From a virus (lineage: Duplodnaviria; Caudoviricetes), in the IMG/VR virus record IMGVR_UViG_3300028833_000119, positions 1-64,000 of that record: DNA of 64,000 bases. One strand, written 5' to 3'. Made by a program: the position numbers and the translations under genes. The notes below the pieces were generated by a model. That model saw nothing but the letters and a program-made list of their open reading frames with translations. It had not been told where the DNA came from and ran no database searches. The stretch's first letter is position 1. Every line of letters begins with the position of its first letter. Below are positions 1,364 to 64,000 of the stretch, piece after piece.

Positions 1364-2389
1364 TTATAAACACAAAGCTGCATACATGTCATCGAAGCCG
1401 TCGCCATACAGATTGATGTAAGTATTATATGTTACTTTCACATCACTGTGTCCCAACAGCTTCGAAAGGATCTTAATGTCGATCCCTTTGTAATAGCAAT
1501 TCGTTGCGAATGTATGCCGGAAAACGTGTGCCCCTCGATAGGGAACGTTGGATTCCTTGCACATCTTCTTAATTGTACGAATCAGAACAGGATATTCAAG
1601 ACGTTTGTCTATACCAAACACAAATTCGCTGGACGCTCGCTTTTTCAATATGTTGAGTATAGCTGTTGCTCTTACATTAAGAGGTATAGTACGAATACTC
1701 GCGTCAGTCTTCGGCGTGTCCTGAACATATGCTTTTGATGGCAGGTGAGGATTGACAACGGTTGCACATACATGACAGCGATGTTTATCAGTATCCACAT
1801 CACTCCATCGAAGGGCAAGTGCTTCGCCGGATCGCAAACCTGTCTCAATCATAAAAGCAACACACAGTACAGCGTTTTGATCAGAGTGTGTTTCGATATA
1901 ATCCTGTAACCTGCGCTGTTCTTTTTCATTATATGCCAGAACTTCGCGTGGCTTTTTGATTATCTTCTGGTTTGGCATATCAACTTCCTGCGCAGGATTG
2001 TCTGGGATAATTTTTAGCGACACGGCTTTGCGAAGCGACGCACGAAGCAACTCCAATTGTTTTTTTATTGTACTGAAACTATACCCTTCGTTCGTGATCT
2101 GATTGATATAGAATTGGATATCAAGCGGTGTTACATCGCATACACGTTGCTGTCCGATTGGATATCTGGCGAGCGATTCGTTTGACCCTGTGAGCCTGTC
2201 ATATGTTCCAGATTTGACTTCGTTCTTTTTAAATAGATCCAGCCAAAGCGAAATGTACGTGTAGAGACTGATTGTGTTATCCATAATTAGAGCTCCTTTA
2301 CTGGAGCCTTGCGGTATATTGTAGTTGTCAAAGTTCGCAGCATCTACCTTATTTGAAGTATATAAATTAGCAAAATGATTGTCAAGCAT
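1364..2389 (-). CDS. int: Tyrosine integrase
   Basis: TGLRSGEALAL, HVFRHTFAT and LGHSDVKVTYNTY catalytic motifs (R-H-R-H-Y), preceded by a SAM-like N domain. Confidence 0.95.
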   Translation of the reverse strand: MLDNHFANLYTSNKVDAANFDNYNIPQGSSKGALIMDNTISLYTYISLWLDLFKKNEVKSGTYDRLTGSNESLARYPIGQQRVCDVTPLDIQFYINQITNEGYSFSTIKKQLELLRASLRKAVSLKIIPDNPAQEVDMPNQKIIKKPREVLAYNEKEQRRLQDYIETHSDQNAVLCVAFMIETGLRSGEALALRWSDVDTDKHRCHVCATVVNPHLPSKAYVQDTPKTDASIRTIPLNVRATAILNILKKRASSEFVFGIDKRLEYPVLIRTIKKMCKESNVPYRGAHVFRHTFATNCYYKGIDIKILSKLLGHSDVKVTYNTYINLYGDGFDDMYAALCL

Positions 2390-10106: not shown

Positions 10107-10643
10107 TCAGTCGTCACCCTTTTTGTACGGATCGTCGATCAGCCCCTGTTTTATCAGCCATGCAATGCCTACAGCAACGGCGTCAGATTCATCATCGCAT
10201 GCATATTCCTGTTTTCCGACGAACTGTTCCAACGCTTCGGCAACTTCATTCTTTTCTGCAGAAGCATCATTTGTAATTTTCTTCTTAACAGTAACAGCTT
10301 CTATTTCCTGAAACTGGCGCTGCCCGAATGCCCATGCATACAAATCAGAAACACCGACAACACGATTCAGGATTGATAACACTTTCCCGCTGGCAGACGT
10401 TCCGCTCTTACGGAGAGCTTCTTCACGGACCAGCTCTGCATCCGGATGCGCTGTCAGCAGTCTGCGTAGTTCGGCTGCGATCTCAGACAATACTTCTCCA
10501 TGACATTTTTTCTTTCCGGCATAAGTCTTGTTATTGATATTGCTCAATTCCTACACGGAAACTGTGCGGTCGTCCGGGCTGTATCGAAGAACGGCAAACC
10601 CTGGACGGCGCATGGAAAAATCACAGGCGATGATTTCAGTCAC
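10107..10643 (-). CDS. ruvC: RuvC-like Holliday junction resolvase with in-frame TAG at 10551-10553
   Basis: GTG start coupled to the upstream TGA; MTEIIACDFSMRRPGFAV (first catalytic Asp) then TVSV*ELSN; downstream VREE and DESDAVAVG motifs. Confidence 0.85.
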
Positions 10644-10965
10644 AGGAATCACAACCCTGCTGATTACATGTTACCGTGATATGATCCGAAGAGATCGTAT
10701 TGTCGCCGCATGTTACCGAATACCAGTATTTATTTTCTCGTTCTTCTTTCTCAAGACACATCTTGTGACAATCCGGGCAGTTTGCGTGGTAACGCACACT
10801 GTACGTGTTTGTAAATGTATATGTCGTGCTGATGCACCCGTTGCCCCAGGAAGAATCCTGATAATACTCGTCCGGCGCAGCCCTGAACTTACACCCACAG
10901 TTCGGACATGTAAAAATAACAGATCCGTCTTTTATTTTATTCTTTCCGCTTGAAATGATTTCCAT
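10636..10965 (-). CDS. Zn-ribbon hypothetical protein
   Basis: FTCPNCGC...CPDC. Confidence 0.65.
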   Translation of the reverse strand: MEIISSGKNKIKDGSVIFTCPNCGCKFRAAPDEYYQDSSWGNGCISTTYTFTNTYSVRYHANCPDCHKMCLEKEERENKYWYSVTCGDNTISSDHITVTCNQQGCDSCD

Positions 10966-12942: not shown

Positions 12943-14882
12943 TACTGCATAATCCCATCATTCGACAGCACGTTCATCCACCGGCGCTTGTCAAATTCCT
13001 TCTTTCGAATTTTCTGGTAACTGCTGGTCGGCGTATAAAACCCAACAACACGGGCGTAAGTGTCAGCGATCGGCTTGCCGCAGACCGGGCATTTCGGCTC
13101 ACTGATAAACGCATGTTTATCCTCGCACACGCTGATCTTTGTTGTGAATGCGAAATAGATCACACCCTGGGATGCAACATAGTTCAGCATCTCCCATGCG
13201 GTTTCTTCGTTCGCAAAGCGATTCTCAATATTGATATGGGCAATACAGCCACCGCCACACTTCTTATCGAACAAAGATCCCAGGCGGCACTTCTCCTGGA
13301 TCGTACATTTTTCCATGAGCGGAATCCACTGGTTTGAATAAATCCAGTACTTGTGCTGTTCAAACAGAAGATTGTCGGCCTGACAGATAACACCGGCGCA
13401 GTTCTCGGCTGGAATCATTTCGATATTGAAAGTGAAGTCACATTCAAAATGATCCTTAACGTCGTTCATAGTATCCAGAATCTGTGTAGCGAATTCAACA
13501 GCTTCCTCTGAATAGAATTTGCAGCCAAGCTCATCAGTTCTTATAAACCCAAACAGGTCCATGACTTCGTACATACCGATACCGCCGATAGTACAGAACT
13601 GTTTGTCCAATTCGACCGCGCCGTCCTGATAGTTCGGGAGCAACCCCTTTTCAATATTACGCTGCAGAACATGGCGCATGGATGCAAGCGCCTTGCAATC
13701 AAGAAGCACACGTTGACGCAGGATTTTCAGGTATTTCCTTTTGTCGAAAAGTCCTTCTTCGTCTTTGGACTCATAGGCAATACGCACAAGGTTTATCGTG
13801 CTGACCCTGCAGGATCCAACAGACAATGCCGTGCCGCCGATGGAGTTAATGAATGCATCCAACTTGGAAGTATCAGACAGCAGCCGGCAGCAGTTAGAAA
13901 GGACGCCGACATTATCGCTGACAAAGAAGTTGGAGTCGCTCCACTTCATATTGTGTGCGGAACACCAACGGGCGAATGGCTCGTCCTGGAATTTGCCGTC
14001 CTTATAAAGCAGGGAATAAGTTAATACAGGATACGTAAACATGTTGATCTCGCGTGTCTCGCTGACCACTTCCATGAAAACCTTCTGTGCTTCAATCAGG
14101 TCTTCAACATGTTCAATTGCCAGCGTACCGTCCGGGAACTCAACGCCGCCGAAAATTGCCTCAATATACGGGCGGTCAAAGATCGACACATTGGTAAACG
14201 CGGACTGGTCGATCCGCAGGAACGGCTGATTGAGCCTGAAGATAAACTTCTGGAACTGCTGGCGGAGATAATAATCAGGATCTTTCATATAGTATCCGCC
14301 TTCGACATCCTTCTTCCAGAAATACCATGCCCAGATCAGAACGTTCGGCATACCAACCGCGCCGGACTGCCGGTTGGACAGGAACGAAACAAATTCGATC
14401 ACATCATCGAAGTATGTGGTCAGATGTTTCGGAGCCTCATTGTTATAGTTTTGCAAAAAGAAAAGGCCCTCGGTTGCGAGCCTTGTGAAGTCGTTAGCCC
14501 AGCAGTACGGGAAGTAACTCGCCGTCGTGCTGTCGTTGAGATAGAACCCACGGCTGAACTCCTGCTCCAGCCATTGCTTTGCCGTTCGCAATCCCCACAT
14601 CTTCTTGATCTCCATGAAGATCTTGTTCAGCCCGAACAGCTTGTCCTCGGACTTACCCTTCTCGGTCATGAAGCTTCGGATGTCGCGGGTGTTTGCGTTT
14701 GCATTCGGGTCAATACTTGCATCAGCCAGCGTATCATGACCCACGAAGTTATTGATAAACTCGGAGAAGTCCAGCTGGCTGGGATGAAGACCATTAATAT
14801 ACTCGAAGTCTTCACCGTATTTTTGTTTCAGTTCTTCTAGAAAACGCTCGAAGTCTTTGGATAATTTCAACTGAATATCCAT
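12942..14882 (-). CDS. nrdD: Class III anaerobic ribonucleoside-triphosphate reductase
   Basis: LSNCCRL, MIPAEN, C-terminal CxxxH...CPVCG and glycyl-radical motif YARVVGFY. Confidence 0.93.
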   Translation of the reverse strand: MDIQLKLSKDFERFLEELKQKYGEDFEYINGLHPSQLDFSEFINNFVGHDTLADASIDPNANANTRDIRSFMTEKGKSEDKLFGLNKIFMEIKKMWGLRTAKQWLEQEFSRGFYLNDSTTASYFPYCWANDFTRLATEGLFFLQNYNNEAPKHLTTYFDDVIEFVSFLSNRQSGAVGMPNVLIWAWYFWKKDVEGGYYMKDPDYYLRQQFQKFIFRLNQPFLRIDQSAFTNVSIFDRPYIEAIFGGVEFPDGTLAIEHVEDLIEAQKVFMEVVSETREINMFTYPVLTYSLLYKDGKFQDEPFARWCSAHNMKWSDSNFFVSDNVGVLSNCCRLLSDTSKLDAFINSIGGTALSVGSCRVSTINLVRIAYESKDEEGLFDKRKYLKILRQRVLLDCKALASMRHVLQRNIEKGLLPNYQDGAVELDKQFCTIGGIGMYEVMDLFGFIRTDELGCKFYSEEAVEFATQILDTMNDVKDHFECDFTFNIEMIPAENCAGVICQADNLLFEQHKYWIYSNQWIPLMEKCTIQEKCRLGSLFDKKCGGGCIAHINIENRFANEETAWEMLNYVASQGVIYFAFTTKISVCEDKHAFISEPKCPVCGKPIADTYARVVGFYTPTSSYQKIRKKEFDKRRWMNVLSNDGIMQ

Positions 14883-23400: not shown

Positions 23401-23594
23401 CCAAAGATAAATTTTATACCTTTGCTGTCGCAATAATCTTTCTTCTCAACCCAGGAACGCGGAAGGCCGTGCTCTGTTGACCCAATGGCTTTCATGCCCT
23501 GTGCAACAGCAAGATCTACATATTCAGAATATTTTGAACAGCTATCAAGAAGCGAAGAATCAGAATGAAGATGGTAACATACAAAATTACCCAC
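20460..23594 (-). CDS. dnaE: DNA polymerase III alpha subunit (family C)
   Basis: GTG start with GGAGGA RBS; PHP domain HLHSDSSLLDS, TEHG, GTDTH; GPSRGSVSGS; ADVDED catalytic motif; FNYNHAVGY; HhH SSIKGVG. Confidence 0.95.
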   Translation of the reverse strand: MGNFVCYHLHSDSSLLDSCSKYSEYVDLAVAQGMKAIGSTEHGLPRSWVEKKDYCDSKGIKFIFGVEAYVTYSLDPKVRDNMHVCLLARNKEGFHEINRLMNLATQPEQFYYSPRISIDQLLNISSNVIKTSACLASPLNRIEHTDPRYMEIVRAFDYLEIQHHNVQDQKDYNRWLLKLSQQTGIPLIAGTDTHSSSIIKAQARDVLLEYKEQKYNEDGWDMTWKNYDELIDAYEKQDALPRGVYMDAIENTNVMADLVEDWSLDKRPKYPVLYGSPEADEEKLHEVTWKMLDEKIESGVIPKEQEEEFRRDITEEFDAFHQTNMGGFMLSMHEIINWCRDTGKPIGPSRGSVSGSRVAYVTGITDLNPVQWHTNFSRFCNSERVSLADVDEDCIESDRPAIFEYIISKFGADKCARVAAYGTIADLSFIDDCGGGLGIMWEREHFPEKFKENGRMDKVKYKFDHKNPYNPLKLQAIKKEYKTDQDTTRKKYPDLFYYENAMVGTRVSQSVHPAGMVICCEPLEENWGVFNKDGERCLLIDMNEASTVNLVKYDLLILKTVQVISDTYKLLGLPYPRMNEIDFCDKDVWDDICNDTSGVFQFESDFASDSIKKFKPRSIEEITVVNAALRPGSASYRDQLFARKRHKNPTKQIDEIFWDSYGFCCYQEQVIEFLQKVCGLSASYADTIRRAISKKKRDKIDKAMPEILDGYCKNSDKPREEAEEEAKEFLKVIEDSSEYSFNYNHAVGYSLLSYMCGYLRHHHPEQFIAAYLKNAANDDDINTGRTMAKVRGIRMTKPKFRQDNRTFCIDPVEHTISDALSSIKGVGLKDAEALWNMKNREYGTFVELLRDMTLYPGALNTAVIEKLIKLDYFREFGTIKRLLWLYDEFYNGAHCFKTTLVLASQQKRMNELIAIETGDSSVVNGFLSGMFDTKSDNQHAMVDKDDPLEVVRYECELLGAPMTILPEAYKGCYAVLEVDEKYSPKIRMQSLTTGNVGMMKVLKKTFAANPLKAGNIIRLDRWQQKEAYGKPGVMENWMDQYTIV

Positions 23595-24237
23595 AGTATT
23601 TCCTCCTGTGTTTATGCGTTTGTTCTGATAATGCACGTTCGACTGACCAGCCATATATAACTATCCGTCTTCTGATTGTATCTTTACGGATGCCAGTAAT
23701 TTCAGACCATTCCTGGATAGTATGTGTTTCACCATTATAGGTTAATAGGTGATTAGACCTCATATTGTTACATTGCTGCTTTTGTGTATGCCATGCACAA
23801 TTTTCGGGAGAATAATTACCATTTGTATCGATGCGATCAATAGTACACTGATACTTTGGAGCGGAATCATCATATCCATGTGAATATGCCCATTCTTTGA
23901 ACAGTAAATAATTGTCCCATTCTTTACATACTTTTATTCCCCTTGCACCATACCATTTGTATTGCGGAGAGTTTACATTATTGCATCTGTCTTTAATTCC
24001 ATGCCAAACACCATATAATCTATCATCGTGTCTTGCATTACGGACATGATCTGGTCTTACACACCCACAACATTTACTGGTTCCGGTTCTGACACTTCTT
24101 CCTTCAACAATCTTTTCTTTTCCACAAAGCAAACAACGACACAAAAAAGTGGCAGATCCCGATTTGCTTCTGCCAACTTCTTTAATTACATACCAATTGT
24201 TAATTGTTTGCCCAGTAATGTCTTTTACATTACCCAA
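23587..24237 (-). CDS. HNH homing endonuclease
   Basis: KDITGQTINNW...FLCRCLLCG...CCGC; YGVWHGIKDRC...YGARGI...TIDRIDTNGNYSPENC; TTG start with AAAGGA RBS. Confidence 0.88.
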   Translation of the reverse strand: MGNVKDITGQTINNWYVIKEVGRSKSGSATFLCRCLLCGKEKIVEGRSVRTGTSKCCGCVRPDHVRNARHDDRLYGVWHGIKDRCNNVNSPQYKWYGARGIKVCKEWDNYLLFKEWAYSHGYDDSAPKYQCTIDRIDTNGNYSPENCAWHTQKQQCNNMRSNHLLTYNGETHTIQEWSEITGIRKDTIRRRIVIYGWSVERALSEQTHKHRRKYCG

Positions 24238-24244
24238 TGTTATA

Positions 24245-24532
24245 TTATCCTTTCTTCGCCCACTGCACCTGCACATGCTTTTCAAGAACGTCTTCATAGA
24301 TCTCAGGATATTCCATTTCAACTGCCTTATCCATCACCAACTCGGTTCCATAACCGAACGCCTTGTCACATTTCGGACACAAGAATTTTGCAAGCGAAAC
24401 CTGATAACCATATGCCAGTCGGTCATCCGTTATATCGTAACCACGATACCAACTATGGCAGTACGGGCACTGCACAGCAATATGACGAATTGGAGCCAAC
24501 TCGTATTCGACACGGACATTAAATTTATTCAT
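24245..24532 (-). CDS. Zn-finger hypothetical protein
   Basis: VQCPYC...LCPKC. Confidence 0.6.
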   Translation of the reverse strand: MNKFNVRVEYELAPIRHIAVQCPYCHSWYRGYDITDDRLAYGYQVSLAKFLCPKCDKAFGYGTELVMDKAVEMEYPEIYEDVLEKHVQVQWAKKG

Positions 24533-26288: not shown

Positions 26289-27057
26289 AGGACGGATTCA
26301 CGCCGCAGATCCATTTGCAAAAATATGGCTCTTTTGTTTCTTCGGCGCCGATACAGGAATGCCAGTCTTCAAACAGGTCGCATGCTTCAATCTCCCGGAT
26401 GCCATCCATGAACCATTTCTTTGTGACGTCAACCATCGCTTCATCAAACGGCTCATCAATGTTCACCATGTCTTTGACCATATTAAAACGCAGTGTCTTC
26501 GGATATACGCCGTACTCTTGCTTACACCAGATCGCATAGAGATATAACTGCATCCTGTAAATCTGGTATTCTTTTTTCATTGAGGCCATGGACTTTGTCT
26601 TATGATCAACAATGATGATATCCGGTTGCAAGGCCGTGTCGCAAAGCACCAGATCGGCAATTCCCGAAACAGGATAACCGCCGATATCAAGCACAAACTT
26701 CTTTTCAACAGAAAGGACTTTGTAACCATCCGGGATGCCTTCAAAATTTTCAAGATACTGAATCGCAGCGTTGTAATTCTTCTCACCGAAACCCTTTGGA
26801 AACGGCGGAGGAGCAACAATTACTTCAGACTCATAACGGGACCGCCATTCATCTGCGAGACAGAATACAGGAAGATTGCCCTTGTAATACTGCTCCAGAA
26901 TCGAATGCATCAGCGAACCGTACTCGGAAAAGTACCCCGGCAGTTCATCGTCGCTGCCGGGGTTTTCAACGTATGTCAAATAGAATGACATGGGACATTG
27001 TTTGAAAGCTGCGATCTTGCTGAAACTGTACCGGAAGTTATTCGGCAGGTGTTTCAT
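26200..27057 (-). CDS. PD-(D/E)xK exonuclease, Cas4/AddB-like with Cys cluster
   Basis: SFSKI...QCP, YGSLMHSILE, VEKKF, GIADLV, DHKT, QLYLY and C-terminal C...CKWICG...C. Confidence 0.85.
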   Translation of the reverse strand: MKHLPNNFRYSFSKIAAFKQCPMSFYLTYVENPGSDDELPGYFSEYGSLMHSILEQYYKGNLPVFCLADEWRSRYESEVIVAPPPFPKGFGEKNYNAAIQYLENFEGIPDGYKVLSVEKKFVLDIGGYPVSGIADLVLCDTALQPDIIIVDHKTKSMASMKKEYQIYRMQLYLYAIWCKQEYGVYPKTLRFNMVKDMVNIDEPFDEAMVDVTKKWFMDGIREIEACDLFEDWHSCIGAEETKEPYFCKWICGVNPSCDDYQRVHLAAIEAWKAKREAEEAAAFGY

Positions 27058-27646
27058 CCTTCTTCTCCTTTGATGCTTCGCCGGTAATTGCTTTGGCAAG
27101 ATTGTTGATCGCATCGCAGATAAATTTAGTAGGCTGCGGATTGGAATCGTATTCTTTTGGCTTTTGCTCGGTTTTCTTTGGTTCAGGCTTTGGTTCGGCC
27201 ACAGGTTTCAGGTTATCCATGTCGCACTCTTGCATGATCGCCTTGGCCCGGGAGGTAGAACCGAACATCTTCTTCATGCAGGCCATGGCAAACCCGGCGT
27301 ATTTCTCGTAGGGCTGGTCTTCCATGCATTTGACTACGGTTTTTGTTCCGTCGTCCCAGAAGACGATCGTTGCCGGAGGATTGAAGATAATACGATCGAC
27401 GTCAGGGATACCCCACATCATCGGATCTTCTTCCTCGAGCTCAAGTTCGCAGTCGAAACATTCTTCCTGGCAGAGATCGCACTCAGAACAGTCAAGATCA
27501 CAGAATGGGATTTCTTCGTCAGGAATATCTTTGGTTACAGTTTCTTTGGTTTCACTTACAGGTATCAAACGGCAATCATGCCAGTAATAACTACCATCAC
27601 CAGTATGTATTGCCTGAAGCAACAAGGAATCAAAATCATCAACCAT
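27038..27646 (-). CDS. Hypothetical phage protein
   Basis: RIIFNPPATIVFWDDGTKTVVKC domain; acidic Cys-rich linker. Confidence 0.75.
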   Translation of the reverse strand: MVDDFDSLLLQAIHTGDGSYYWHDCRLIPVSETKETVTKDIPDEEIPFCDLDCSECDLCQEECFDCELELEEEDPMMWGIPDVDRIIFNPPATIVFWDDGTKTVVKCMEDQPYEKYAGFAMACMKKMFGSTSRAKAIMQECDMDNLKPVAEPKPEPKKTEQKPKEYDSNPQPTKFICDAINNLAKAITGEASKEKKDETPAE

Positions 27647-39943: not shown

Positions 39944-40489
39944 TCAATACCACAGGTCAACAACAGTGTCAGTGACAGCGAACTTTATCAGATCAGTGTG
40001 CGCATTCAGAAAGTCCAACATGCTCCGCTCACAGGCTCTCTTGAAGCTCTCCACTGTTCTGCGCTTCGGGATAAACATCTCATCGTCGAGCAATTTGTAC
40101 GGATTGTCCTTTACCCAAAGGTCTAACACCTCATCCGATTCACCGAATACATACACATCATTCGTACATTCATGGTATTCCGGATCAAATCCACCACCAT
40201 TGCACCGGAATTCCACCAGAATCTTTCCAACATGCATTGCACCGAACACATCGGTGTCCTGTTTGTCGAACCGGATCTTCTCAAAACCGTCTTCAGTCAG
40301 CTTCCAGACAAAGTTCAGATCGTACTCATCACGTTCATACTCGTAACGTTCTCCTCCACGATATTCCTGGTGCTGGTTGATCCAGTCCATCGCTTTCTGG
40401 TAACCAGTGCCGTCCTCGTCCGTGCTGATTCCGAAGTATCTGGGTTTGTGTTCCAACTGATCTGTGACAACGTGCGTGTAAACTTTCAT
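39944..40489 (-). CDS. Hypothetical protein
   Basis: Operon-packed ORF. Confidence 0.6.
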   Translation of the reverse strand: MKVYTHVVTDQLEHKPRYFGISTDEDGTGYQKAMDWINQHQEYRGGERYEYERDEYDLNFVWKLTEDGFEKIRFDKQDTDVFGAMHVGKILVEFRCNGGGFDPEYHECTNDVYVFGESDEVLDLWVKDNPYKLLDDEMFIPKRRTVESFKRACERSMLDFLNAHTDLIKFAVTDTVVDLWY

Positions 40490-55524: not shown

Positions 55525-55908
55525 ATGCCGCTGAGTGAGGAAAGAGTCGTCCAGAAACTCATTCGCGACAGGTCGGTATAGGACCAATCTTTCTGGCCCA
55601 TGTTTGATCCGTCCGGTATATTGAGCACGGACGGCGTGTTTGCGCTGAACGAGGACGTACTGTGTATTTATGCGGACCTTGATTCGCTGATTGAGCGAGC
55701 GGGATTAAGTGAGCAGGAGCGCCTGACAGTGGACCTGCTGATGCAGGGATACACGCTTCCGGACATTGCTGACCATTACGGGAAGTCAAGGCAGAACTTC
55801 GAGCTTTTTCTGAAGAAGGCTTGCAAGAAGATTGTAAAGCGCAACAATGCCGACTGGGAAGAATGCACGGGTGCGCGGATCGACGACGGCGAGTGGGAGA
55901 GTGAATAA
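55525..55908 (+). CDS. Sigma region-4-like HTH protein with in-frame TAG at 55579-55581
   Basis: MPLSEERVVQKLIRDRSV*DQSFWPMFD...; AGLSEQERLTVDLLMQGYTLPDIADHYG HTH. Confidence 0.65.
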
Positions 55909-56340: not shown

Positions 56341-56607
56341 ATATATGGGGTAGGCAAGAACAGGGAGGTCTGGGCGTGTGTAGGCGAGCGCGTAGCTGAA
56401 GCGGCAGACTGATAAATGCCAAGAAGAAAATACAGCCCGTACGTCAGAACACATCGGGGCCAACCCGACGGGATTCGGAGGACGCAAGTGCCGAAGATAA
56501 ACCTGACACAAGGCGTTTTGACATCTGACAGGGATGCGTGTGATTAAGTGGCGGTGGAGAAAGATCGGTACGATAAAGCGCCGGCGCGACTGCACACCCC
56601 CATATCT
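56341..56607 (+). ncRNA. Candidate ~265 nt structured ncRNA
   Basis: Intergenic; atatgggg (56343-50) pairs with ccccatat (56598-605); gtgtgtag pairs with ctgcacac; GC-rich interior. Confidence 0.5.
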
Positions 56608-56679
56608 TTCAAAAAACCTGACAAGCACGAGGAGGTTAAGGCTACTGCACCAGGCAGCTTTTTCAGTCGTGCGTATCGA

Positions 56680-56739
56680 AAGACGCTAACAGCAAAAATT
56701 ATACAATAACAATTGGAATGTTACTATGCATGCGTCTTG
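56680..56739 (+). repeat. AAGAC(G/C)C...CAGCAAA...G(C/G)GTCTTG RNA repeat, copy 1 (internal taaca-atTGGaa-tgtta arm)
   Basis: 7-bp closing stem, conserved CAGCAAA and a 5-bp/7-nt anticodon-like hairpin. Confidence 0.7.
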
Positions 56740-56763
56740 TTATTTTATATCGGAGGTGCTTAT

Positions 56764-57216
56764 ATGCTTTGCTGGAACGTTTATGTAAGTGACTTTAATT
56801 CCGGCAGGATTAAACCTTATAACATCTTTCAGCACTACGGGTTTTATAACGAGTGCGTGAAAGCGAAGAAAAAACACAAAGACGACAAAGAAGGTTTTGG
56901 AAAAGACGTGCATGGCTGGCTGATGTATTACTTCTGGTCGAAATGTGAATGGGAAGTCATCCTGGACCACTGGCCGTCCGGCGAGTTTTATAACATGCGC
57001 AAAGTGCTGACGCTGGAGGAAATGTACCATGACCTGAAGTATCCGGAAGACAAACTGTTCAGCGCGCCTGATAGGCGGTTCGAGATCCGCGTATTTCCGG
57101 AACACAACCGGTTCAGGGAAGAAAAGATTGACGTTTTTGCCCAAGTGGAAAACAACTGGGATATTTTTATTGATTGGCTATGGGATCACCGCAGTGAGTT
57201 GAAAGCGAGAAAATAA
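56764..57216 (+). CDS. Conserved hypothetical phage protein
   Basis: RBS GGAGGT; WNVY..DFN...YNIF...YYFWSKCEWE...KIDVFAQV. Confidence 0.75.
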   Translation: MLCWNVYVSDFNSGRIKPYNIFQHYGFYNECVKAKKKHKDDKEGFGKDVHGWLMYYFWSKCEWEVILDHWPSGEFYNMRKVLTLEEMYHDLKYPEDKLFSAPDRRFEIRVFPEHNRFREEKIDVFAQVENNWDIFIDWLWDHRSELKARK

Positions 57217-57217
57217 T

Positions 57218-57514
57218 ATGGCGAAGAAAGAAGTAATGCTTGGTGTGCCGGATAGTCCGGAAGTTGAAAATGAAATAAGTTTGTTGGAGCATCGTGCTAT
57301 TTTGTTTGGGTTCCCGGAGCATGCTGTCGAGATTGAGATTCAGGCGAAGGTTTTCGAAAACGGAGAACTGCTGAACGTAACAAAAAAAATGGATATGGAT
57401 GAGATCCGCGAAGCTTTCCGGAAAGCGGATGACGGTTATGTTGATGATGATGATAGATTTGTGATTACCGATAAAGGAATTGCATATCTGGAAGAACACA
57501 ATCAGCCCACTTAA
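57218..57514 (+). CDS. Hypothetical protein
   Basis: Operon-packed ORF. Confidence 0.65.
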   Translation: MAKKEVMLGVPDSPEVENEISLLEHRAILFGFPEHAVEIEIQAKVFENGELLNVTKKMDMDEIREAFRKADDGYVDDDDRFVITDKGIAYLEEHNQPT

Positions 57515-57618
57515 AATCAATACAATTTTATAAGTAATGATAAGTAGATGAGTATTTACCCATCTCGTTTACCGGAGGTTCACTGACCATACTATTATTA
57601 ATGGGGTGATCATACAAA

Positions 57619-57978
57619 ATGAAGGCGAATCGATATGCGCGGAAGCGCCGGCACAAACGTGAGCTTGAGAAGAAATATGCGAAGAAGTATGCGTATGGTT
57701 CCGGACAATATGATGTTCAATGGTTGCGTGAAAAGTTGCGGCGTGAAGCCCAGGAAGACAACTGGTGGATTCGAAGGCATCCTCCAAAGAATAATGGTTG
57801 GGAGTACTGGAGGACATATTCCCTGTCCGGCAGGCGCGGATATGCAAAGAAATATTCAGACAAATGTATCCGGCAGAAGTACAGGCAAATGATCAAGTGC
57901 ATTGATCCGGAGGATGTGATTGCGATGAGGGGCGCTGATTATGAAAAAGAGTATGACTATTCGTGGACGATTTGGTAA
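57619..57978 (+). CDS. Basic hypothetical protein
   Basis: K/R-rich; RBS GGGGTG. Confidence 0.65.
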   Translation: MKANRYARKRRHKRELEKKYAKKYAYGSGQYDVQWLREKLRREAQEDNWWIRRHPPKNNGWEYWRTYSLSGRRGYAKKYSDKCIRQKYRQMIKCIDPEDVIAMRGADYEKEYDYSWTIW

Positions 57979-58486
57979 ATGGCGTGAGAAGCGCATGATA
58001 ATCCGGAAGAACAAGGAACTGTGTGAGCGGTTCCCTTTTTTGATACCATGGCACAGGTTTACTGGCGAACGTTTCGTACAGCTGGACAGGCACGGAAAAA
58101 TGAAAGCTGTTCATGACTATGACTGGTCGTATACAGAACTTGACAGTATGCCGGATGGGTGGCGCAAAGCATTCGGAATGAAGATGTGCGAAGAAATCCG
58201 CGAAGAACTGATCAAGTGGAATGATCTTGACCGCTGGCAGATTATTGAGATGAAAGAGAAATACGGGCAGCTGCGTATTTATGACAACGGCATAAAGATT
58301 GGATGTCGTATTCATGATATCGAGAGAAAATACGAACAGATCAGCGAGCGCACATGCATCGTGTGCGGTGCGCCTGCAACAAAGATGACGCTTGGATGGA
58401 TTTCGCCGTACTGCGACAAATGCTGTCCGGAAGAGTACAGCGAGCCGATCGGCAAATATTTAAAGGGGGAAGATACAATTGTCTAA
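57941..58486 (+). CDS. Conserved hypothetical phage protein
   Basis: DSMPDGWRKAFG...EMKEKYGQLRIY...S..TC..CG...GWISPYC. Confidence 0.75.
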   Translation: MKKSMTIRGRFGKWREKRMIIRKNKELCERFPFLIPWHRFTGERFVQLDRHGKMKAVHDYDWSYTELDSMPDGWRKAFGMKMCEEIREELIKWNDLDRWQIIEMKEKYGQLRIYDNGIKIGCRIHDIERKYEQISERTCIVCGAPATKMTLGWISPYCDKCCPEEYSEPIGKYLKGEDTIV

Positions 58487-58892
58487 TGAAATACAGGTAA
58501 CTGAAAAGATGGCAAAGTTTATTGACTGGGTGACCAGCCTTGGCGAAGATGAGGTGCGTAAACGCATCCGGGATAAAATTAATGAAATCAAAAACCTGCC
58601 GCCGAACGTGCGCGACCGGGACGGTTATTACTGGGATATCCGGCTTGAGCCGAACGATGGGAATGATCAGTACAAACACGGCGGCGACTGCAATCTGTGT
58701 AAACGGCTGAAGTATTGCGGGACAAAGTGCGGAGCAAATAAGGTTTTGAAGAAAATTACAACGCCTTATCTGTACCAGATGTATATTGACGAAAACCCGG
58801 AAGTTGCCGCAGAAGAGGCAGCTGGTCGGATTACACCGGATGATATGTTGAAGATTGTGGGTGCGGACGATGGACAGCAGCCTGTTCTTTGA
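58479..58892 (+). CDS. Hypothetical protein with Cys cluster
   Basis: GDCNLCKRLKYCGTKC. Confidence 0.6.
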   Translation: MSNEIQVTEKMAKFIDWVTSLGEDEVRKRIRDKINEIKNLPPNVRDRDGYYWDIRLEPNDGNDQYKHGGDCNLCKRLKYCGTKCGANKVLKKITTPYLYQMYIDENPEVAAEEAAGRITPDDMLKIVGADDGQQPVL

Positions 58893-59163
58893 TGATATTA
58901 CATGGTGCATGAAAAGCGATTGTCCTATGAGGACATGCAGAAGGAACTCCGTGAACATGATCGATCGCACAGGACTTCATTCGTTCGCGATATTCAAAGG
59001 AACGGCAGACTGTCCGATCAGCCAGTCCCTGGACGAGTGCATGGACGGATGCCTTTACGCAAAAGAGTGCTTCGCAAAACACGACGATCCGGATGAGGCT
59101 TTGAGGGTGCTGGTGGAAGAATACTGTGACGACTGTATGTTTTCTTCTGCGGAGGAAGATTAA
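58870..59163 (+). CDS. Cys-rich hypothetical protein
   Basis: DITWC...CP...C.R pattern. Confidence 0.6.
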   Translation: MDSSLFFDDITWCMKSDCPMRTCRRNSVNMIDRTGLHSFAIFKGTADCPISQSLDECMDGCLYAKECFAKHDDPDEALRVLVEEYCDDCMFSSAEED

Positions 59164-59408
59164 TGAAAGAGATTATTACTGAAAAGCAAATGAAGGATGC
59201 GTTCAGGGTTGCGTATGATTTTATGAACAAACATAATTCAATCCTGCATGAAGCGGATGAGTATACCCGTACGGTTAACGAGATTTATGGGGTTGCAAAG
59301 ACATACGGTGTTAATCCTTTGATGATGCGCCTGGTTGTTGCATGCTACGAATTTATCTGCGACAAGTCATTTGCAATTCGTTCACAGGAGGGAAAAGATG
59401 ACACCTGA
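59163..59408 (+). CDS. Hypothetical protein
   Basis: Coupled start and stop codons. Confidence 0.6.
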   Translation: MKEIITEKQMKDAFRVAYDFMNKHNSILHEADEYTRTVNEIYGVAKTYGVNPLMMRLVVACYEFICDKSFAIRSQEGKDDT

Positions 59409-59583
59409 AGAACTTCTTGAAGATCTTGAGACATGCACAGGGCCTTGCGGACGGATGTGTATGTCATGTCCGGAAAGCAGGTATGTTGCAGAAATCCGCG
59501 AAGTGCTTGTAACGCTTATGGATGAAAACAAGAAATTGCGCGAGGCGCTCAGAGGATATACAGGGGAGGTTGATTTTTTATGA
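59398..59583 (+). CDS. Small Cys-containing hypothetical protein
   Basis: CTGPCGRMCMSCP. Confidence 0.55.
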   Translation: MTPEELLEDLETCTGPCGRMCMSCPESRYVAEIREVLVTLMDENKKLREALRGYTGEVDFL

Positions 59584-59678
59584 TCAGTGCATGGTGGCTG
59601 CTGTTGATTGTTCCCGCGTCGGCGTTGTTGGGTATTTTTTGTATCGCTTTATGTTCGGCATCGAGGACAGATGACTGA
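59580..59678 (+). CDS. Small membrane peptide (DUF3789-like size)
   Basis: MISAWWLLLIVPASALLGIFCIALCSAS. Confidence 0.55.
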   Translation: MISAWWLLLIVPASALLGIFCIALCSASRTDD

Positions 59679-59731
59679 CATGCTTGCATATTTGCCGATT
59701 TATTTAATTATATAAGAGGGAAGGGATTATA

Positions 59732-60415
59732 TTGGCGACAGGACATAAAATTATCGAACCTTCCGGCAGGACTTCTGTTGCGATGATCGATAACCATGAA
59801 AGTGCCGTTGCGTATGTGAACGGCATATAGGAGAAGTGGTCCGGTTATTGCGATAAAAATTGGTTGAACGATTCCGGTGATGTGTATACGCCGGAATTGA
59901 AGATCAAGTATTTTCTTGACGGACTTGCTTATTTGCTGCTGATCGGAAACACGGATGGCATAGAAACGAACTATAAACGTGTGATGAATGCGAAGCGTGA
60001 GATTCCGGCGTCAAGCTGTCCGAGTGAAATCGAGAACCTGTTGTATGGAACCGGATGCTCGACGGATTACGCAGAGGAAGAGGAAGCCCAGTTCCGGGAT
60101 ATGCTGGACAGGCTTGACAGCAAAGCGGAGCCTTATGAATGCAGGAAAACAAAACGAGACAGGAAATGCAGCCTGTTTGCGAAGAAACTGCAGAAAGGCA
60201 TACCGGACGGAGACTGGTATCTTGTTGATACGGAAGGAAGATTCAGGGTCGGCGACCAATGCTATATTATCGAGGATAACGCTGTACAGTACCAGCCGGT
60301 CCAGACGGAGTACGGCAATTATTACGCGATGGATAAAGTCCTGTATGCTGGCGGCAAATTCTACGATATGAATTATGACGAAGTGATTGTCCTTCAAGTC
60401 GGGACGGAGACGTAA
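59732..60415 (+). CDS. Conserved hypothetical protein with in-frame TAG at 59828-59830
   Basis: TTG start after the GAGGGAAGGG RBS; MATGHKIIEPSG...AVAYVNGI*EKWSGYCDKNW continues in frame into ORF 59864-60415. Confidence 0.7.
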
Positions 60416-60428
60416 AACCCGTCTGCAT

Positions 60429-60535
60429 AAGACGCACACAGCAAACCATATACATATTAAAAACTTCTTAATAATAGTTTTCCGGCAACGCCTCCTGACA
60501 GTGCGGACCAGTGCCGGCCTTTTTATTGCGTCTTG
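60429..60535 (+). repeat. AAGAC(G/C)C...CAGCAAA RNA repeat, copy 2
   Basis: aagacgca/tgcgtctt stem with internal hairpins. Confidence 0.7.
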
Positions 60536-60541
60536 TCTTAT

Positions 60542-60615
60542 TGCCTGTTAGCTCAGTCCGGAAGAGCGTCGCACTGTTAATGCGAATGTCACAGGATCGA
60601 AGCCTGTACAGGCAG
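60542..60615 (+). tRNA. tRNA-Asn (GTT), CCA not encoded
   Basis: Acceptor tgcctgt/acaggca; anticodon arm tcgca-ctGTTaa-tgcga; T arm acagg-atcgaag-cctgt; G73. Confidence 0.9.
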
Positions 60616-60713
60616 CGAATTGCGGTATAAGTTTTCGGACTTATATCTGGGTGGCCGGATGCGTCCGGCTTCCTGCACCAAGCTGTGCGAAACATCCGCC
60701 GAACGGCGGACAT

Positions 60714-60793
60714 GGCCGTGTATGCAAAATGGAAAAGCAGTGGCTTCTAAACCCATGGAATTATTCTGGGTTCGACTCCCAGCTCGGCCACCA
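60714..60793 (+). tRNA. Amber suppressor-type tRNA (anticodon CTA, 60747-60749) with Leu-like body and encoded CCA
   Basis: Acceptor ggccgtg/ctcggcc, A73, CCA; D arm tgc-aaaatggaaaa-gca; anticodon arm gtggc-ttCTAaa-cccat (C31:C39 mismatch); ~9-nt variable region; T arm ctggg-ttcgact-cccag. Confidence 0.8.
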
Positions 60794-60856
60794 AAGACGC
60801 TTGCAGCAAACTTGAAGCATCAGACTGTTAATCTGAAGAAGCTAATCGGCGTCTTG
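60794..60856 (+). repeat. RNA repeat, copy 3, with tRNA-Asn-like anticodon arm
   Basis: aagacgc/gcgtctt stem, CAGCAAA and tcaga-ctGTTaa-tctga. Confidence 0.75.
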
Positions 60857-60866
60857 CTACATTTTG

Positions 60867-60928
60867 AAGACCCATACAGCAAACAACTGATGAAGCTACA
60901 GAGGATGATGAGCAGAAAGCGGGTCTTG
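60867..60928 (+). repeat. RNA repeat, copy 4 (compensatory GACCC/GGGTC stem)
   Basis: aagaccc-atacagcaaa...gggtcttg. Confidence 0.7.
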
Positions 60929-60948
60929 GATATTTCAGCCAAGAGGAA

Positions 60949-62169
60949 GTGAAGGGATTGAGCAGGTCTATTGAATCGCTCAATGTAAAGGAAAAAGCGA
61001 GCCTTGTCCAGGAGATGCTGGACAAGAAAACCGGGGTTTTGGATAAAGACTGGTGCGACATGGTCATGGATTACGATCTGGATTGTAATCCGGAAACCCT
61101 GCGGAAAGCCGGGGTCGGCGTAAAGCTTGCAAGCGACGCAGGAATGTGTTTCCCGATTGACGGCGCTGTAACCCGCGACGTTATGGATGGTTATGTTGAG
61201 CGCCAGAAACTCTATGACCTTCAACGCGGAATCAGGAAAGACCTGCGCGAACAATCCAGAAGCGAGCTGCTTCGGGAGATGATCTGCAACGCGATTAAAG
61301 CGCTGCCGAAGATCAATGTGTCTGTATGCCAGGAGAGAGTTGAACATGAAGCCGACAGAAGCCGCGAGCTGGTTGTCGGGATCGGTGATTTCCATTACGG
61401 CGCCAGGTTTACGGTGGAAGGCCTGTACGGCGAGGTGCTGAATACGTATGATCCGTATGTGTTTGATGAACGGATGGGAATGCTGATTCACGAGGTTAAA
61501 CAGATTGCGAAAACACACAAACCGGAAATGATTACCGTGATGATTGTTGGCGATATGCTGGACGGAATGATTCATACATCGCAGCTGACGAGGCTTGAAT
61601 ACGGCGTTGTCGAGAGCGCGATGCGGCTCAGTGAATATCTTGCGCAGTGGCTTGCCGAACTGAATCGCGAGACAGGCGTCCCGGTTCGTGTGTACGCTGT
61701 CCGTGGAAACCACGGCGAGATCAGGCCGCTCGGAACCAAGGCAGGACAGTTCCCGGAGGAAAACCTGGAGCGGGTTGTTATGCATTACCTGGCCATGCGT
61801 TTTGAGGACAACGACGTTATCCTCGTAATGGACGATGACGCGCCGATGAGCCGCGTTGTTGATGTGCTGGACTACAACTTCCTGCTGCTCCATGGACAGG
61901 GAAACGACATTGAAACAATCGCCCGTGACTGCCAGACACTCTATAATAAGAAGATAGATGTGTTTATGGTCGGGCATTTACATAAAAACCAGACGTTCAC
62001 CGCAGGAATGGGACGGAACGGCAATGTGCTGATCGAGCGGATCCCGAGCCTGTGCGGAATGGATCCCTACGCGCAAAGCAAAGGATACGGGTCTCCGCCA
62101 GGTGCGACTGTGATCGTGATGGAAAAAGGATACGGACGCAAGTGTGTGTATCCGATTGTATTAAGCTAA
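60949..62169 (+). CDS. Calcineurin-like metallophosphoesterase
   Basis: GDFHYG, GDMLDG, GNHG, LLHG and GHLH motifs. Confidence 0.88.
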   Translation: MKGLSRSIESLNVKEKASLVQEMLDKKTGVLDKDWCDMVMDYDLDCNPETLRKAGVGVKLASDAGMCFPIDGAVTRDVMDGYVERQKLYDLQRGIRKDLREQSRSELLREMICNAIKALPKINVSVCQERVEHEADRSRELVVGIGDFHYGARFTVEGLYGEVLNTYDPYVFDERMGMLIHEVKQIAKTHKPEMITVMIVGDMLDGMIHTSQLTRLEYGVVESAMRLSEYLAQWLAELNRETGVPVRVYAVRGNHGEIRPLGTKAGQFPEENLERVVMHYLAMRFEDNDVILVMDDDAPMSRVVDVLDYNFLLLHGQGNDIETIARDCQTLYNKKIDVFMVGHLHKNQTFTAGMGRNGNVLIERIPSLCGMDPYAQSKGYGSPPGATVIVMEKGYGRKCVYPIVLS

Positions 62170-62261: not shown

Positions 62262-63128
62262 ATGCCGAAAAAGAAAACGCCGGCAAAGCTGTGCGTCCGG
62301 TGCAACCGCATCCTGCCGCTGGAAAAGTTCAGCCCGAACAAACTCTGGGCTTCCCAGCAGTACAGGGATGCCTGGTGCACAGAATGCGCAAAAGAGTTTT
62401 GCAAAGATGAAGAAACAGTAAAGCGGTACTGCTTCGAGAACAACAGGAAATTTAAAGAAGTTGCATGGGAAGCCGCAAGGAAGAAAGCGGCATACGACCT
62501 GAACAACAACAAAGTATACCTTAATCCAATGACCACTCCGGAAAAGAAAAAAGAAGAGGAAGCCTTGGCACAAGCCAAGGCTTTTTTTAGTTTGAAGAAC
62601 AGCAACTACGCTTATGAGTACGAAGAGAACATCCATGTTGCGGACTCTACACAGGATGAAGTTGTGCATGAGTTTGTAGATGATAAGAACAAGCCTTATT
62701 ATGACAAGATATGGCAGGGCTGGTTCACGCCGGAGCAGGTTGAGTGGATGAATGAAAAGTATGTACAGTATTCAGAAGACTTTGTCCTTGACAACATCAA
62801 TATGCAGGACTATACGCGCAAGGTAATCAAGGCGTCACTGAATGCCGACCTTGCGGAGGACAGGATGCGTCGTGGGCAGGGGACTCCTGATGAGTACATG
62901 AAAGCGCAGAAAATTTTTGATGACCTCAGCAAGAGTTCAAACTTTGCGGCTTGCCGGAGAAAACCCGGCGAGAGCACAGGTATGGGATCTCTTGGTGAAA
63001 TTATCCTAAAGCTTGAGACACAGGGTTACCTTGATGAGAATCCTTATACGTTCCCTGATGATGATATCGACAAGGTGATTCAGGCTTATCAGTATACACT
63101 CGAATCAATCGGGATGGATATCAGATAA
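62262..63128 (+). CDS. Zn-finger protein upstream of terL (possible terminase small subunit/packaging factor)
   Basis: CVRC...WCTEC; stop codon overlaps the terL start. Confidence 0.6.
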   Translation: MPKKKTPAKLCVRCNRILPLEKFSPNKLWASQQYRDAWCTECAKEFCKDEETVKRYCFENNRKFKEVAWEAARKKAAYDLNNNKVYLNPMTTPEKKKEEEALAQAKAFFSLKNSNYAYEYEENIHVADSTQDEVVHEFVDDKNKPYYDKIWQGWFTPEQVEWMNEKYVQYSEDFVLDNINMQDYTRKVIKASLNADLAEDRMRRGQGTPDEYMKAQKIFDDLSKSSNFAACRRKPGESTGMGSLGEIILKLETQGYLDENPYTFPDDDIDKVIQAYQYTLESIGMDIR

Positions 63129-64000
63129 TGCCTTCGATCGACAAAGCGTCTCAGATCAGGGAACTCAAAAATTTTGTAGCGTGGCAAAAACAGATATGGT
63201 TCTGGCGTACACACCTCGACCGGTTTATTGAAGATTATTTCAAGATTAAGCTGAAGCCGAGCCAGCGTGTGGATGCACGAATCCTCGGCAATTTCCAGAG
63301 CATTGACCTGGTGAAAAACCGTGGCGCAGGCAAAACGTGGCTGATTGCGATCTGTGCGATTGCGCTCGGTGTTTTGTATCCGAACAGCTCAATTGCCGTG
63401 ATTTCAAGTACAGCTGAACAGGCAGTGCTTGTCGTAAAGAAAATCGAAGAAAAATTTTTACAGTATCCAGATGTGCTGCGCGAGATTAACGCAAGCCGAC
63501 ATAATAAGCCGGTACAGGTAAATCCGCACAAGGGTGTATGCTGGCTGAAGAGCGGAAGCAAGATCGAGAGTTATTCGATGGGTACGCTGAGAGGTAACCG
63601 CGCAAAGATCCTGATTTGTGACGAGGCGCCTGAGATCGCGAAGAACGACCTTGACGCCGTTGCAAAGCCGATTATGAACGAGACGCGTGATATCTGTATC
63701 CAGCGCGGCATTGAGGATTACGACAGCAAAATTATCAGTATTACTTCAGCATGCCTGAAAAACAATTATTTCTATACGTCTTTTGTAAACATCCTGAAGC
63801 GGATGTCCGCCGGTGAAAAAGGATGCTTTGCATGGGCGATGACATATCAGGAAGCAGTCCGCGAAGGGATTTCAAAACAGTCATATTTTGACGACCAGAG
63901 GAAAGATATGACGGAAGAGAAATTCATGATGGAATATGAAAGCAAATTCCTTGGCGCTGCAGAGGGCGCTGTGTTCCCGTTTGAACTGACGGATAAATGC
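63128..64000 (+). CDS. terL: Terminase large subunit (truncated by the window end)
   Basis: Not in the ORF track (no stop in window); open frame with Walker A KNRGAGKT, Walker B ILICDEA and ITSA coupling motif. Confidence 0.9.
   Translation, partial: MPSIDKASQIRELKNFVAWQKQIWFWRTHLDRFIEDYFKIKLKPSQRVDARILGNFQSIDLVKNRGAGKTWLIAICAIALGVLYPNSSIAVISSTAEQAVLVVKKIEEKFLQYPDVLREINASRHNKPVQVNPHKGVCWLKSGSKIESYSMGTLRGNRAKILICDEAPEIAKNDLDAVAKPIMNETRDICIQRGIEDYDSKIISITSACLKNNYFYTSFVNILKRMSAGEKGCFAWAMTYQEAVREGISKQSYFDDQRKDMTEEKFMMEYESKFLGAAEGAVFPFELTDKC

Follow-up and report, generated by a model that had tools for sequence, protein, structure and literature searches.

The stretch analyzed here, positions 1 to 64,000 of the IMG/VR virus record IMGVR_UViG_3300028833_000119 (Duplodnaviria; Caudoviricetes), makes up the initial 64 kb of a single-contig record of 85,213 bp and is referred to below as the window, with G000 designating the whole record. 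On the minus strand of the window lies a gene for a RuvC-like Holliday-junction resolvase that is divided by a single in-frame TAG codon, with the following elements:

10107..10643, minus strand: RuvC-like Holliday-junction resolvase gene, 178 codons with one TAG read through (profile searches, tblastn, AlphaFold and Foldseek)
10551..10553, minus strand: the in-frame TAG, codon 31, in the context GTG TAG GAA (frame reading and the DNA of relatives)
10554..10643, minus strand: the first 30 codons of the gene, encoding the catalytic Asp8 (in I-I-A-C-D) and a conserved R-P-G-F-A (alignment and the ratio pN/pS of nonsynonymous to synonymous differences)

The minus-strand frame opens at a GTG (10643-10641), runs through 29 sense codons to the TAG (10553-10551) and continues for 147 codons to a TGA at 10107, so that the peptide reads T-E-I-I-A-C-D-F-S ... 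T-V-S-V upstream of the TAG and E-L-S-N-I-N-N downstream of it. The GTG overlaps the 3' end of the upstream open reading frame (ORF) 10636..10965 (TGA 10638-10636) by 8 nt. The ORF listing under translation table 11 contains only 10107..10547 on the minus strand, a 146-aa ORF with a TTG start that lacks the RuvC N-terminus. A preliminary description of this DNA, made from its letters, had reported an ORF track beginning at 10547 without the RuvC N-terminus, and an upstream frame leading from a GTG, coupled to the stop of the preceding gene, through the TAG to ELSNINN; re-reading the DNA shows this observation of a TAG-split RuvC gene to be correct in every part.

The assignment to the RuvC family draws on profiles, homologs and structure. 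On a 181-residue read-through product, PF02075 matches residues 9-164 (6-161 in the 178-residue numbering) with an E-value of 1.7e-4 and a score of 21.9 bits, 0.3 bits below the gathering cut-off of 22.2, and phrog_159 ('RuvC-like Holliday junction resolvase') matches residues 7-173 with an E-value of 7.6e-15; both matches extend on either side of the TAG. A further profile search gave phrog_159 over residues 3-170 with an E-value of 5.8e-15. A tblastn search with the read-through product retrieved 40 phage records, each with at least 80% query coverage and many of them annotated as resolvase. The preliminary description had suggested such a search as a means of inspecting the residue aligned to the TAG, and the matches do cross it, with 92-96% query coverage in the 30 rows listed. 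An AlphaFold model of the product with Leu at the TAG reached a predicted local distance difference test (pLDDT) value of 92 and a predicted template-modeling (pTM) score of 0.89, and the TAG residue sits within its strand E27-35, which bears out the earlier suggestion that this position would fit a beta strand, Leu being the best-supported decoding. The ten best Foldseek matches of the model were all bacterial RuvC proteins (E 2e-11 to 5e-9, target template-modeling (TM) scores 0.80-0.87), and the best structures (7xhj, 6lw3, 6s16 and 1hjr) gave query TM scores of 0.73-0.77. Phage and bacterial RuvC proteins such as those of E. coli (1hjr), T. thermophilus (6s16) and Lactococcus phage bIL67 (4ktw) have the same fold (query TM 0.61-0.77), and their acidic residues are kept in the window protein as D8, E74, D150/D151 and D154; they differ from it in sequence (15-21% identity) and in that their genes carry no interrupting stop codon. 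Taken at the level of sequence and model, the gene is best described as a RuvC-family resolvase, with the junction cleavage by a dimer that characterizes this family as its predicted activity.

The acidic catalytic residues of E. coli RuvC are D7, E66, D138 and D141, and the N-terminal catalytic Asp is essential according to established RuvC biochemistry. In the window protein, D8, E74, D150, D151 and D154 are invariant across 27 aligned RuvC sequences, and D8, S10, P14, G15, F16 and A17 are invariant in the RuvC family alignment; E74 and D154 match the Glu and Asp of the D. radiodurans enzyme in alignment, and D8 is assigned solely through the Pfam alignment and the fold. The preliminary description had placed the catalytic Asp ahead of the TAG, as is indeed the case for D8, in the motif ACD. 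Because this invariant residue lies upstream of the TAG, a product starting after the TAG would lack a residue essential for catalysis.

The TAG is not confined to the window. It is present in six metagenome contigs (L001-L006) from different samples, at ~97% nucleotide identity, in which the 30 upstream codons differ from those of the window by three synonymous changes and one E-to-D replacement, and the identical truncated protein is indexed in 51 blocks of the sequence collection. A TAG at the same column occurs in the more distant loci L007 (79% protein identity), L008 (about 58-66%) and L013 (about 52-57%), as well as in L046, L047 and L087. In the last of these, a Clostridia contig from a metagenome-assembled genome (MAG), the RuvC frame breaks about 45 codons in, after the shared TAG, through an apparent frameshift or assembly indel. 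In Nei-Gojobori comparisons of the window with L007, L008 and L013, the 29 codons upstream of the TAG gave a proportion of nonsynonymous differences (pN) of 0.23-0.31 and of synonymous differences (pS) of 0.69-0.73, for a dN/dS of about 0.1-0.2, and the codons downstream gave a pN of 0.16-0.30 with pS saturated. By this substitution pattern, both halves of the gene are under purifying selection. The preliminary description had asked for a comparison of dN/dS on the two sides of the TAG, and had named a sense codon in close relatives together with relaxed selection on this copy as the outcome that would mark a simple nonsense mutant; the opposite was found, since close and distant relatives keep the TAG and selection is purifying upstream and downstream. 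Because it is present in six independent contigs from different samples, the TAG is not an assembly or sequencing artifact, and on this comparative evidence it is neither an error nor a pseudogene mutation.

Whether the TAG is retained more strictly than an ordinary codon was assessed in six lineages carrying it at codon 31 (G000, L007, L008, L013, L046 and L047), at roughly 50-80% protein identity. Among 62 degenerate columns with an invariant residue, a single codon was kept in just one, a Phe column, and each of the seven invariant Leu columns used two to five codons; the TAG column, in contrast, has TAG in 6/6. TAG has only one single-step synonymous exit, TTG, and slower turnover than for other Leu codons is therefore expected. 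Complete retention in spite of this expected slower turnover, at a depth where other codons have turned over, points to the stop codon itself as the object of selection. The RuvC tree is poorly resolved and does not separate one origin of the TAG at codon 31 from several.

A tRNA with the matching anticodon is encoded in the window itself:

60714..60793, plus strand: tRNA with anticodon CUA, an amber suppressor for which Leu is the most likely amino acid (ARAGORN and Rfam; nearest tRNAs in a Clostridia MAG)

This tRNA scores 39 bits against the Rfam tRNA model (cut-off 29). Its anticodon loop is U-U-C-U-A-A-A and its discriminator base A73; the CCA is encoded, the D stem has 3 bp and the variable region 9 nt. 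A tRNA(CUA) was likewise found in related virus records with in-frame TAGs, namely G001, G003, G006 and G007 and in the prophage of the Clostridia MAG G013; the G007 copy was detected by running ARAGORN on whole records and was missed by the Rfam search. The record G008 has no tRNA(CUA) and essentially no in-frame TAG, and G002, G004 and G005 are fragments, 38-51% complete, without the tRNA region. TAG does not end any of the 127-129 genes predicted in G000. Two Clostridia MAGs (G013 and G014) hold RuvC relatives with an in-frame TAG, in one of them on a 250-kb contig with a tRNA(CUA) of its own, and release factor 1 (RF1) scores above the curated cut-off in both. These MAGs hold relatives of the phage and not G000 itself, so that their RF1 serves as a proxy. 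Because both encode RF1, the hosts most likely read TAG as stop, that is, they use the standard code.

The suppressor tRNAs of three lineages have in common a mismatch at positions 31-39, the last pair of the anticodon stem (C-C, C-C and A-C), which may affect decoding:

60714-60793, window: suppressor tRNA with 31-39 mismatch
13607-13683, G001: suppressor tRNA with 31-39 mismatch
40342-40418 (complement), G007: suppressor tRNA with 31-39 mismatch

In order to identify the amino acid inserted at TAG, all frames of G000 and eight related virus records (nine genomes) were translated with TAG as X, frames were picked by their cross-lineage score, and the likelihood of each decoding was computed from the sense residues aligned to TAG, using BLOSUM62 conditional probabilities. 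In 48 independent TAG columns with 143 aligned sense residues, Leu accounts for 65 of the 143 (background 7.9%), followed by Ile (17), Met (9), Lys (8), Gln (8) and Val (7), and it is the majority residue in 24 of the columns. The log-likelihood of Leu leads that of Met by 26, of Ile by 40 and of Gln by 137. The bodies of the suppressor tRNAs agree with this. A73 and a 3-bp D stem are common to all of them; in G006 and G013, moreover, the variable arm is long and stemmed and the D arm is near-identical to the D arms of the G013 tRNA-Leu genes. The G013 MAG tRNAs nearest to each suppressor are tRNA-Leu isoacceptors, the G000 tRNA being closest to a short tRNA-Leu(CAA). Of the traits of bacterial type II tRNA-Leu, the G000 tRNA has A73, the 3-bp D stem and the GG of the D loop, with a variable region of only 9 nt. 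E. coli supP-type suppressors are tRNA-Leu species in which the anticodon CAA has become CUA, and because the anticodon plays no part in recognition by leucyl-tRNA synthetase (LeuRS), they continue to receive Leu. The window tRNA resembles this type in combining a Leu-type body with a CUA anticodon and in its nearness to the short Clostridia tRNA-Leu(CAA); it differs from laboratory amber suppressors derived from tRNA-Leu in being a natural, conserved phage gene and in its shortened variable region. Because the TAG columns are dominated by Leu and the tRNA bodies are of Leu type, TAG is probably read as Leu. That the RuvC TAG is read through by the phage tRNA(CUA), whatever the residue, is very probable on the combined comparative evidence.

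The sequence context of TAG shows a modest bias, the following base being a purine in 41 of 51 homology-supported sites in the nine genomes (G in 23, A in 18). At the three supported sites of G000, the TAG is preceded by GTG, GTA or ATA and followed by GAA, GAC or GAG.

Apart from RuvC, two further genes of the window contain an in-frame TAG:

55525..55908, plus strand: sigma-factor-like gene with in-frame TAG at 55579-55581 (phrog_3512 'sigma factor', E 6.9e-9; alignments across the TAG)
59732..60415, plus strand: conserved gene without Pfam or PHROG match, TAG at 59828-59830, directly upstream of the tRNAs (cross-genome alignments)

The TAG of the sigma-like gene aligns with L, L, L and C in homologs; in G006 and G007, the same gene has TAG at other columns. 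For the gene at 59732..60415, alignments of 230-242 residues with four other genomes, from three further lineages, span the TAG, a codon that recurs at this column in G007. The homology-supported in-frame TAGs of G000 are thus three in 85 kb. RuvC had been considered as the sole TAG-interrupted gene, an idea rejected once the cross-genome alignments added the TAGs at 55579 and 59828. Candidate TAGs at 2969, 4841, 19067, 41657, 77005 and 23663 were also rejected, lying just upstream of plausible starts with no homology across them. In the cross-genome alignments, no TAG was found in the terminase, the 2501-aa ORF or the other large late-module ORFs of G000. A short conserved stretch between tail genes, at 75825-75995 of G000 (outside the window) and 26883-27615 of G001, reads as a small ORF in which G000 has a TAG in common with G001 and G003; the copies of G001 and G003 have three TAGs each. 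It may be a non-coding element instead of a gene.

Across the clade, 71 gene families are present in at least three lineages, of which 42 never contain TAG and 21 contain it in one lineage only. The number of TAG-bearing lineages is 5/7 for RuvC, 4/4 for the family of the 59732 gene and 3/4 for the sigma-like family. RuvC ranks as the top TAG-bearing family of the 71, with a per-family P of 5e-4 for 5/7, a value reached by any family in 141 of 20,000 permutations. In about 19 RuvC sequences TAG occupies nine different columns, and the RuvC of G005/L016 has five TAGs. Among the 120 best database homologs of RuvC, 83 are N-terminally truncated gene calls.

The surroundings of the suppressor tRNA and the left end of the window contain the following features:

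60542..60616, plus strand: tRNA-Asn(GUU), neighbor of the suppressor tRNA (ARAGORN, Rfam tRNA model)
60949..62169, plus strand: Mre11/SbcD-like exonuclease, the first gene past the tRNAs (phrog_284, E 9.8e-46; Pfam Metallophos)
63128..64000, plus strand: terminase large subunit, continuing past the window and marking the packaging/late module (phrog_2, Pfam Terminase_6N)
1364..2389, minus strand: tyrosine integrase gene lacking any in-frame TAG (phrog_1, E 8.5e-61; Pfam Phage_integrase)

The genome is organized in two arms, for the first of which labels were taken from the Pfam labels on syntenic relatives and from profile searches. The leftward arm (about 50.8 kb to 1.3 kb) encodes DNA polymerase III alpha, an RNA-ligase-related protein, Thy1, NrdD/NrdG, a dUTPase, RuvC and a radical-SAM protein, and has the tyrosine integrase at its end. 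The rightward arm runs, in order, from a primase-polymerase (52747) through the sigma-like gene, the gene at 59732-60415, tRNA-Asn and tRNA(CUA) to the exonuclease and the terminase, after which come structural genes that include the 2501-residue tape-measure-sized ORF. The preliminary description had located a suppressor tRNA in the late region, and the tRNA(CUA) does lie directly upstream of the exonuclease and terminase (packaging) genes; in each genome carrying it, it adjoins the 59732-family gene and the exonuclease and terminase genes. An Rfam scan of 56400-61100 for ribozymes and other RNAs found only the two tRNAs. The phage is taken to be temperate because it encodes a tyrosine integrase.

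These observations can be accommodated in a model in which the resolvase is gated by the tRNA. The RuvC TAG would be a sense codon decoded by the phage tRNA(CUA), most likely as Leu, to yield the full-length 178-residue resolvase. In a cell without this tRNA, host RF1 would end translation after 30 residues, and this termination would sever Asp8 from E74 and the D-D-x-S-D motif and leave no active resolvase. The TAG would be kept by selection as a conditional gate that ties resolvase production to expression of the tRNA gene, and the same gate would act on the sigma-like factor and on the conserved gene beside the tRNA. Junction cutting would be withheld in lysogeny and early replication and released when DNA is resolved for packaging. 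A delay until packaging and a lock in the lysogen would fit the genome layout because RuvC lies in the leftward arm with the replication and nucleotide genes, with the tRNA ahead of the packaging genes. As a design, a translational gate on the resolvase appears well supported by the comparative data, and its timing we infer from gene position alone; that host LeuRS charges the tRNA, when it is expressed and what the phage gains physiologically from the gate are likewise presumed. To the account as a whole, Leu read-through together with a selected regulatory gate, we assign a probability of roughly 55%. On a broader view, which we advance tentatively as somewhat short of an even chance, temperate phages of Clostridia form a clade that would maintain a tRNA-Leu(CUA) of its own and a handful of selected TAGs as a minimal translational AND-gate. 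If this were true, junction resolution and late transcription would proceed only once the tRNA is made, and the clade would provide the first viral TAG-to-Leu code and the first demonstrable selection on individual recoded stops, as opposed to a genome-wide code change.

A nonsense mutation or assembly error in a dead gene would account for the broken table 11 frame, in which standard calls recover only a fragment of 128-146 aa, but the TAG recurs across many independent assemblies and extends to distant lineages, purifying selection acts on both halves of the gene, the cognate tRNA is encoded and TAG is never used as a stop in G000, all of which makes a dead gene hardly credible. Nearly as improbable is a reading in which the TAG ends a 30-residue peptide and translation restarts downstream to give a truncated, non-catalytic junction-binding protein. 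A TTG at 10547, two codons past the TAG, does open the 146-aa ORF, yet in relatives the same codon is TTA (L001, L004 and L006), ACA (L008 and L013) or absent, so that no start is conserved; moreover, the AGGA preceding the TTG is only 1 nt away from it, and the 30 codons ahead of the TAG belong to the RuvC fold and are conserved as such. Decoding of TAG as Gln (genetic code 15), as in published recoded gut phages, deserves more attention, since the gene calls of relatives used TAG=Q, the recoded-phage literature searched reports TAG to Gln alone for phages that differ from their host in code, and a few TAG columns do align with Q. In the RuvC TAG column itself, the gene calls covering the N-terminus show V (13), L (9), I (7) and 'Q' (8). 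The 'Q' of the closest full-length homologs was considered as evidence for Gln and rejected, because these proteins translate only with TAG=Q (3/3 tested): for P0009, P0011 and P0098 (loci L044-L047), the public gene calls were made under code 15 and show Gln where the DNA has TAG. Support for Gln from database alignments is hence circular, as code-15 gene calls wrote Gln at TAG, and should TAG be Leu, these three records are mistranslated. Leu dominates the true sense residues, with the deficit for Gln given above, and the suppressors combine A73 with a Leu-type body, whereas the phage and MAG tRNA-Gln sequences compared end in ...CCCAG before the CCA, that is, with G73. We consider Gln improbable.

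It is also conceivable that the phage tRNA decodes the TAG without any regulatory role, as a rare synonymous codon drifting in a lineage that carries a suppressor. TAG is found in many unrelated genes of the clade, with 12-21 supported positions in G001, G005 and G007, and the scarcity of synonymous exits noted above would by itself slow its turnover. G007 in particular encodes the tRNA and has TAG in twelve other genes, mostly in the late module beside the packaging genes, and none in RuvC; because of this TAG-free RuvC, the gate on the resolvase cannot be obligatory. Several further points weigh, like the G007 genome, against a selected Leu gate. The G000 suppressor tRNA is atypical in that its acceptor stem contains a U-U pair, C faces C at 31-39 and its Rfam score is modest. 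TAG stops are rare in the suppressor-free G008 as well (5/157), so that their complete lack in G000 is only modest evidence (P about 0.015). The sense residues of the RuvC TAG column include R, K and E in addition to L, I and V, and the column by itself does not fix Leu. Lineages A and C share one RuvC TAG column, and the enrichment test therefore overstates independence. A consensus scan for promoters and terminators near the tRNAs gave nothing above the shuffled expectation, which means that 'late' refers to position only. Against drift, on the other hand, stand the maintenance of the TAG column in six lineages with saturated synonymous sites, while all seven invariant Leu columns switched codon; the coincidence of the three TAG genes of G000 with the three most consistent TAG families across lineages; and the nine separate TAG columns in RuvC. 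Weighing both sides, we regard non-regulatory drift as unlikely, if far from negligible, and retain Leu read-through with a selected gate as the preferred account.

Translational control of a junction resolvase has a counterpart in phage T4, whose endonuclease VII (gene 49) is translated late only, through an mRNA structure in which an RNA hairpin covers the ribosome-binding site. In both cases a junction resolvase would be held off until late by translational control, with an RNA hairpin as the device in T4 and a stop codon plus a private tRNA in the window phage.

Stop-codon recoding by phages is itself a known phenomenon. Recoded gut phages with their own suppressor tRNA include crAss-like, Lak and Jade phages and the Garnet and Topaz prophages (Borges et al., bioRxiv 10.1101/2021.08.26.457843; Peters et al., PMC9523058), and they share with the window phage in-frame TAGs in conserved genes, a host that uses, or here most likely uses, the standard code, a phage tRNA(CUA) and an integrase gene that contains no recoded stop. 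Recoding has been proposed to act there as a timer or as a lock between lysis and lysogeny, the idea that the preliminary description also put forward with its timing switch or safety lock; the model of Borges et al. is here applied to a resolvase, a word absent from the text of their preprint. Borges et al. (10.1101/2021.08.26.457843) report only TAG to Gln and TGA to Trp in phages that differ from their hosts, and TAG in the phages of both studies is Gln only, whereas in the window phage it is most likely Leu. Recoding in those phages is furthermore broad, affecting tens of genes with a bias to lysis and structural genes, in contrast to the three supported TAGs of G000, none of which is in a structural or lysis gene. 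The concentration of recoded stops in late structural and lysis genes that their model holds is accordingly not seen in G000, while the TAGs of G007 lie mostly in the late module. Codes in which TAG is Leu exist in the mitochondria of chlorophyceans and of chytrids, and among phyllopharyngean ciliates (NCBI tables 16 and 22; PMC6551751, PMC6131824, PMC11687900); codon and amino acid are the same as those proposed here, but these codes are genome-wide and belong to organelles or eukaryotic nuclei, whereas that of the window would be virus-borne, sparse and conditional, in a standard-code bacterium.

Relative to the literature searched, what appears new is the likely Leu assignment, the extreme sparseness of the system, with three supported codons over 85 kb, the evidence from codon comparison that selection keeps one particular recoded stop in a resolvase, and the resolvase family as the commonest carrier. 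Stop recoding has been proposed as a timer for late genes and as a means of holding lytic functions shut in lysogens, a proposal hard to test in known cases with tens to hundreds of codons. A system seemingly reduced to one tRNA and three supported codons would make the hypothesis directly testable, and an amber-controlled sigma-like factor could couple late transcription to the tRNA. Confirmation of TAG to Leu would widen the set of amino acids that phages assign to stops using host synthetases, with LeuRS as the obvious candidate because it ignores the anticodon. For annotation, the consequence is that gene callers either truncate the resolvase, as in most of its best homologs, or insert Gln under code 15, probably the wrong residue for this clade.

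Candidate mobile elements were noted in the window and its relatives. Two minus-strand ORFs of the window, at 2382-2966 and 23587-24333, have similar C-terminal motifs (R-I-D-x-N-G-N-Y ... N-C) and, judged by eye, look like HNH or homing endonucleases; both are flanked by core genes, and one is located immediately upstream of the DNA polymerase III alpha gene. In close relatives (L004 3906-7193, L006 445-4675 and L002 15676-17646), the NrdD gene is split by inserted ORFs with helix-turn-helix matches, and among these loci another gene has Hint, intein and LAGLIDADG matches; mobile insertions vary between otherwise near-identical phages.

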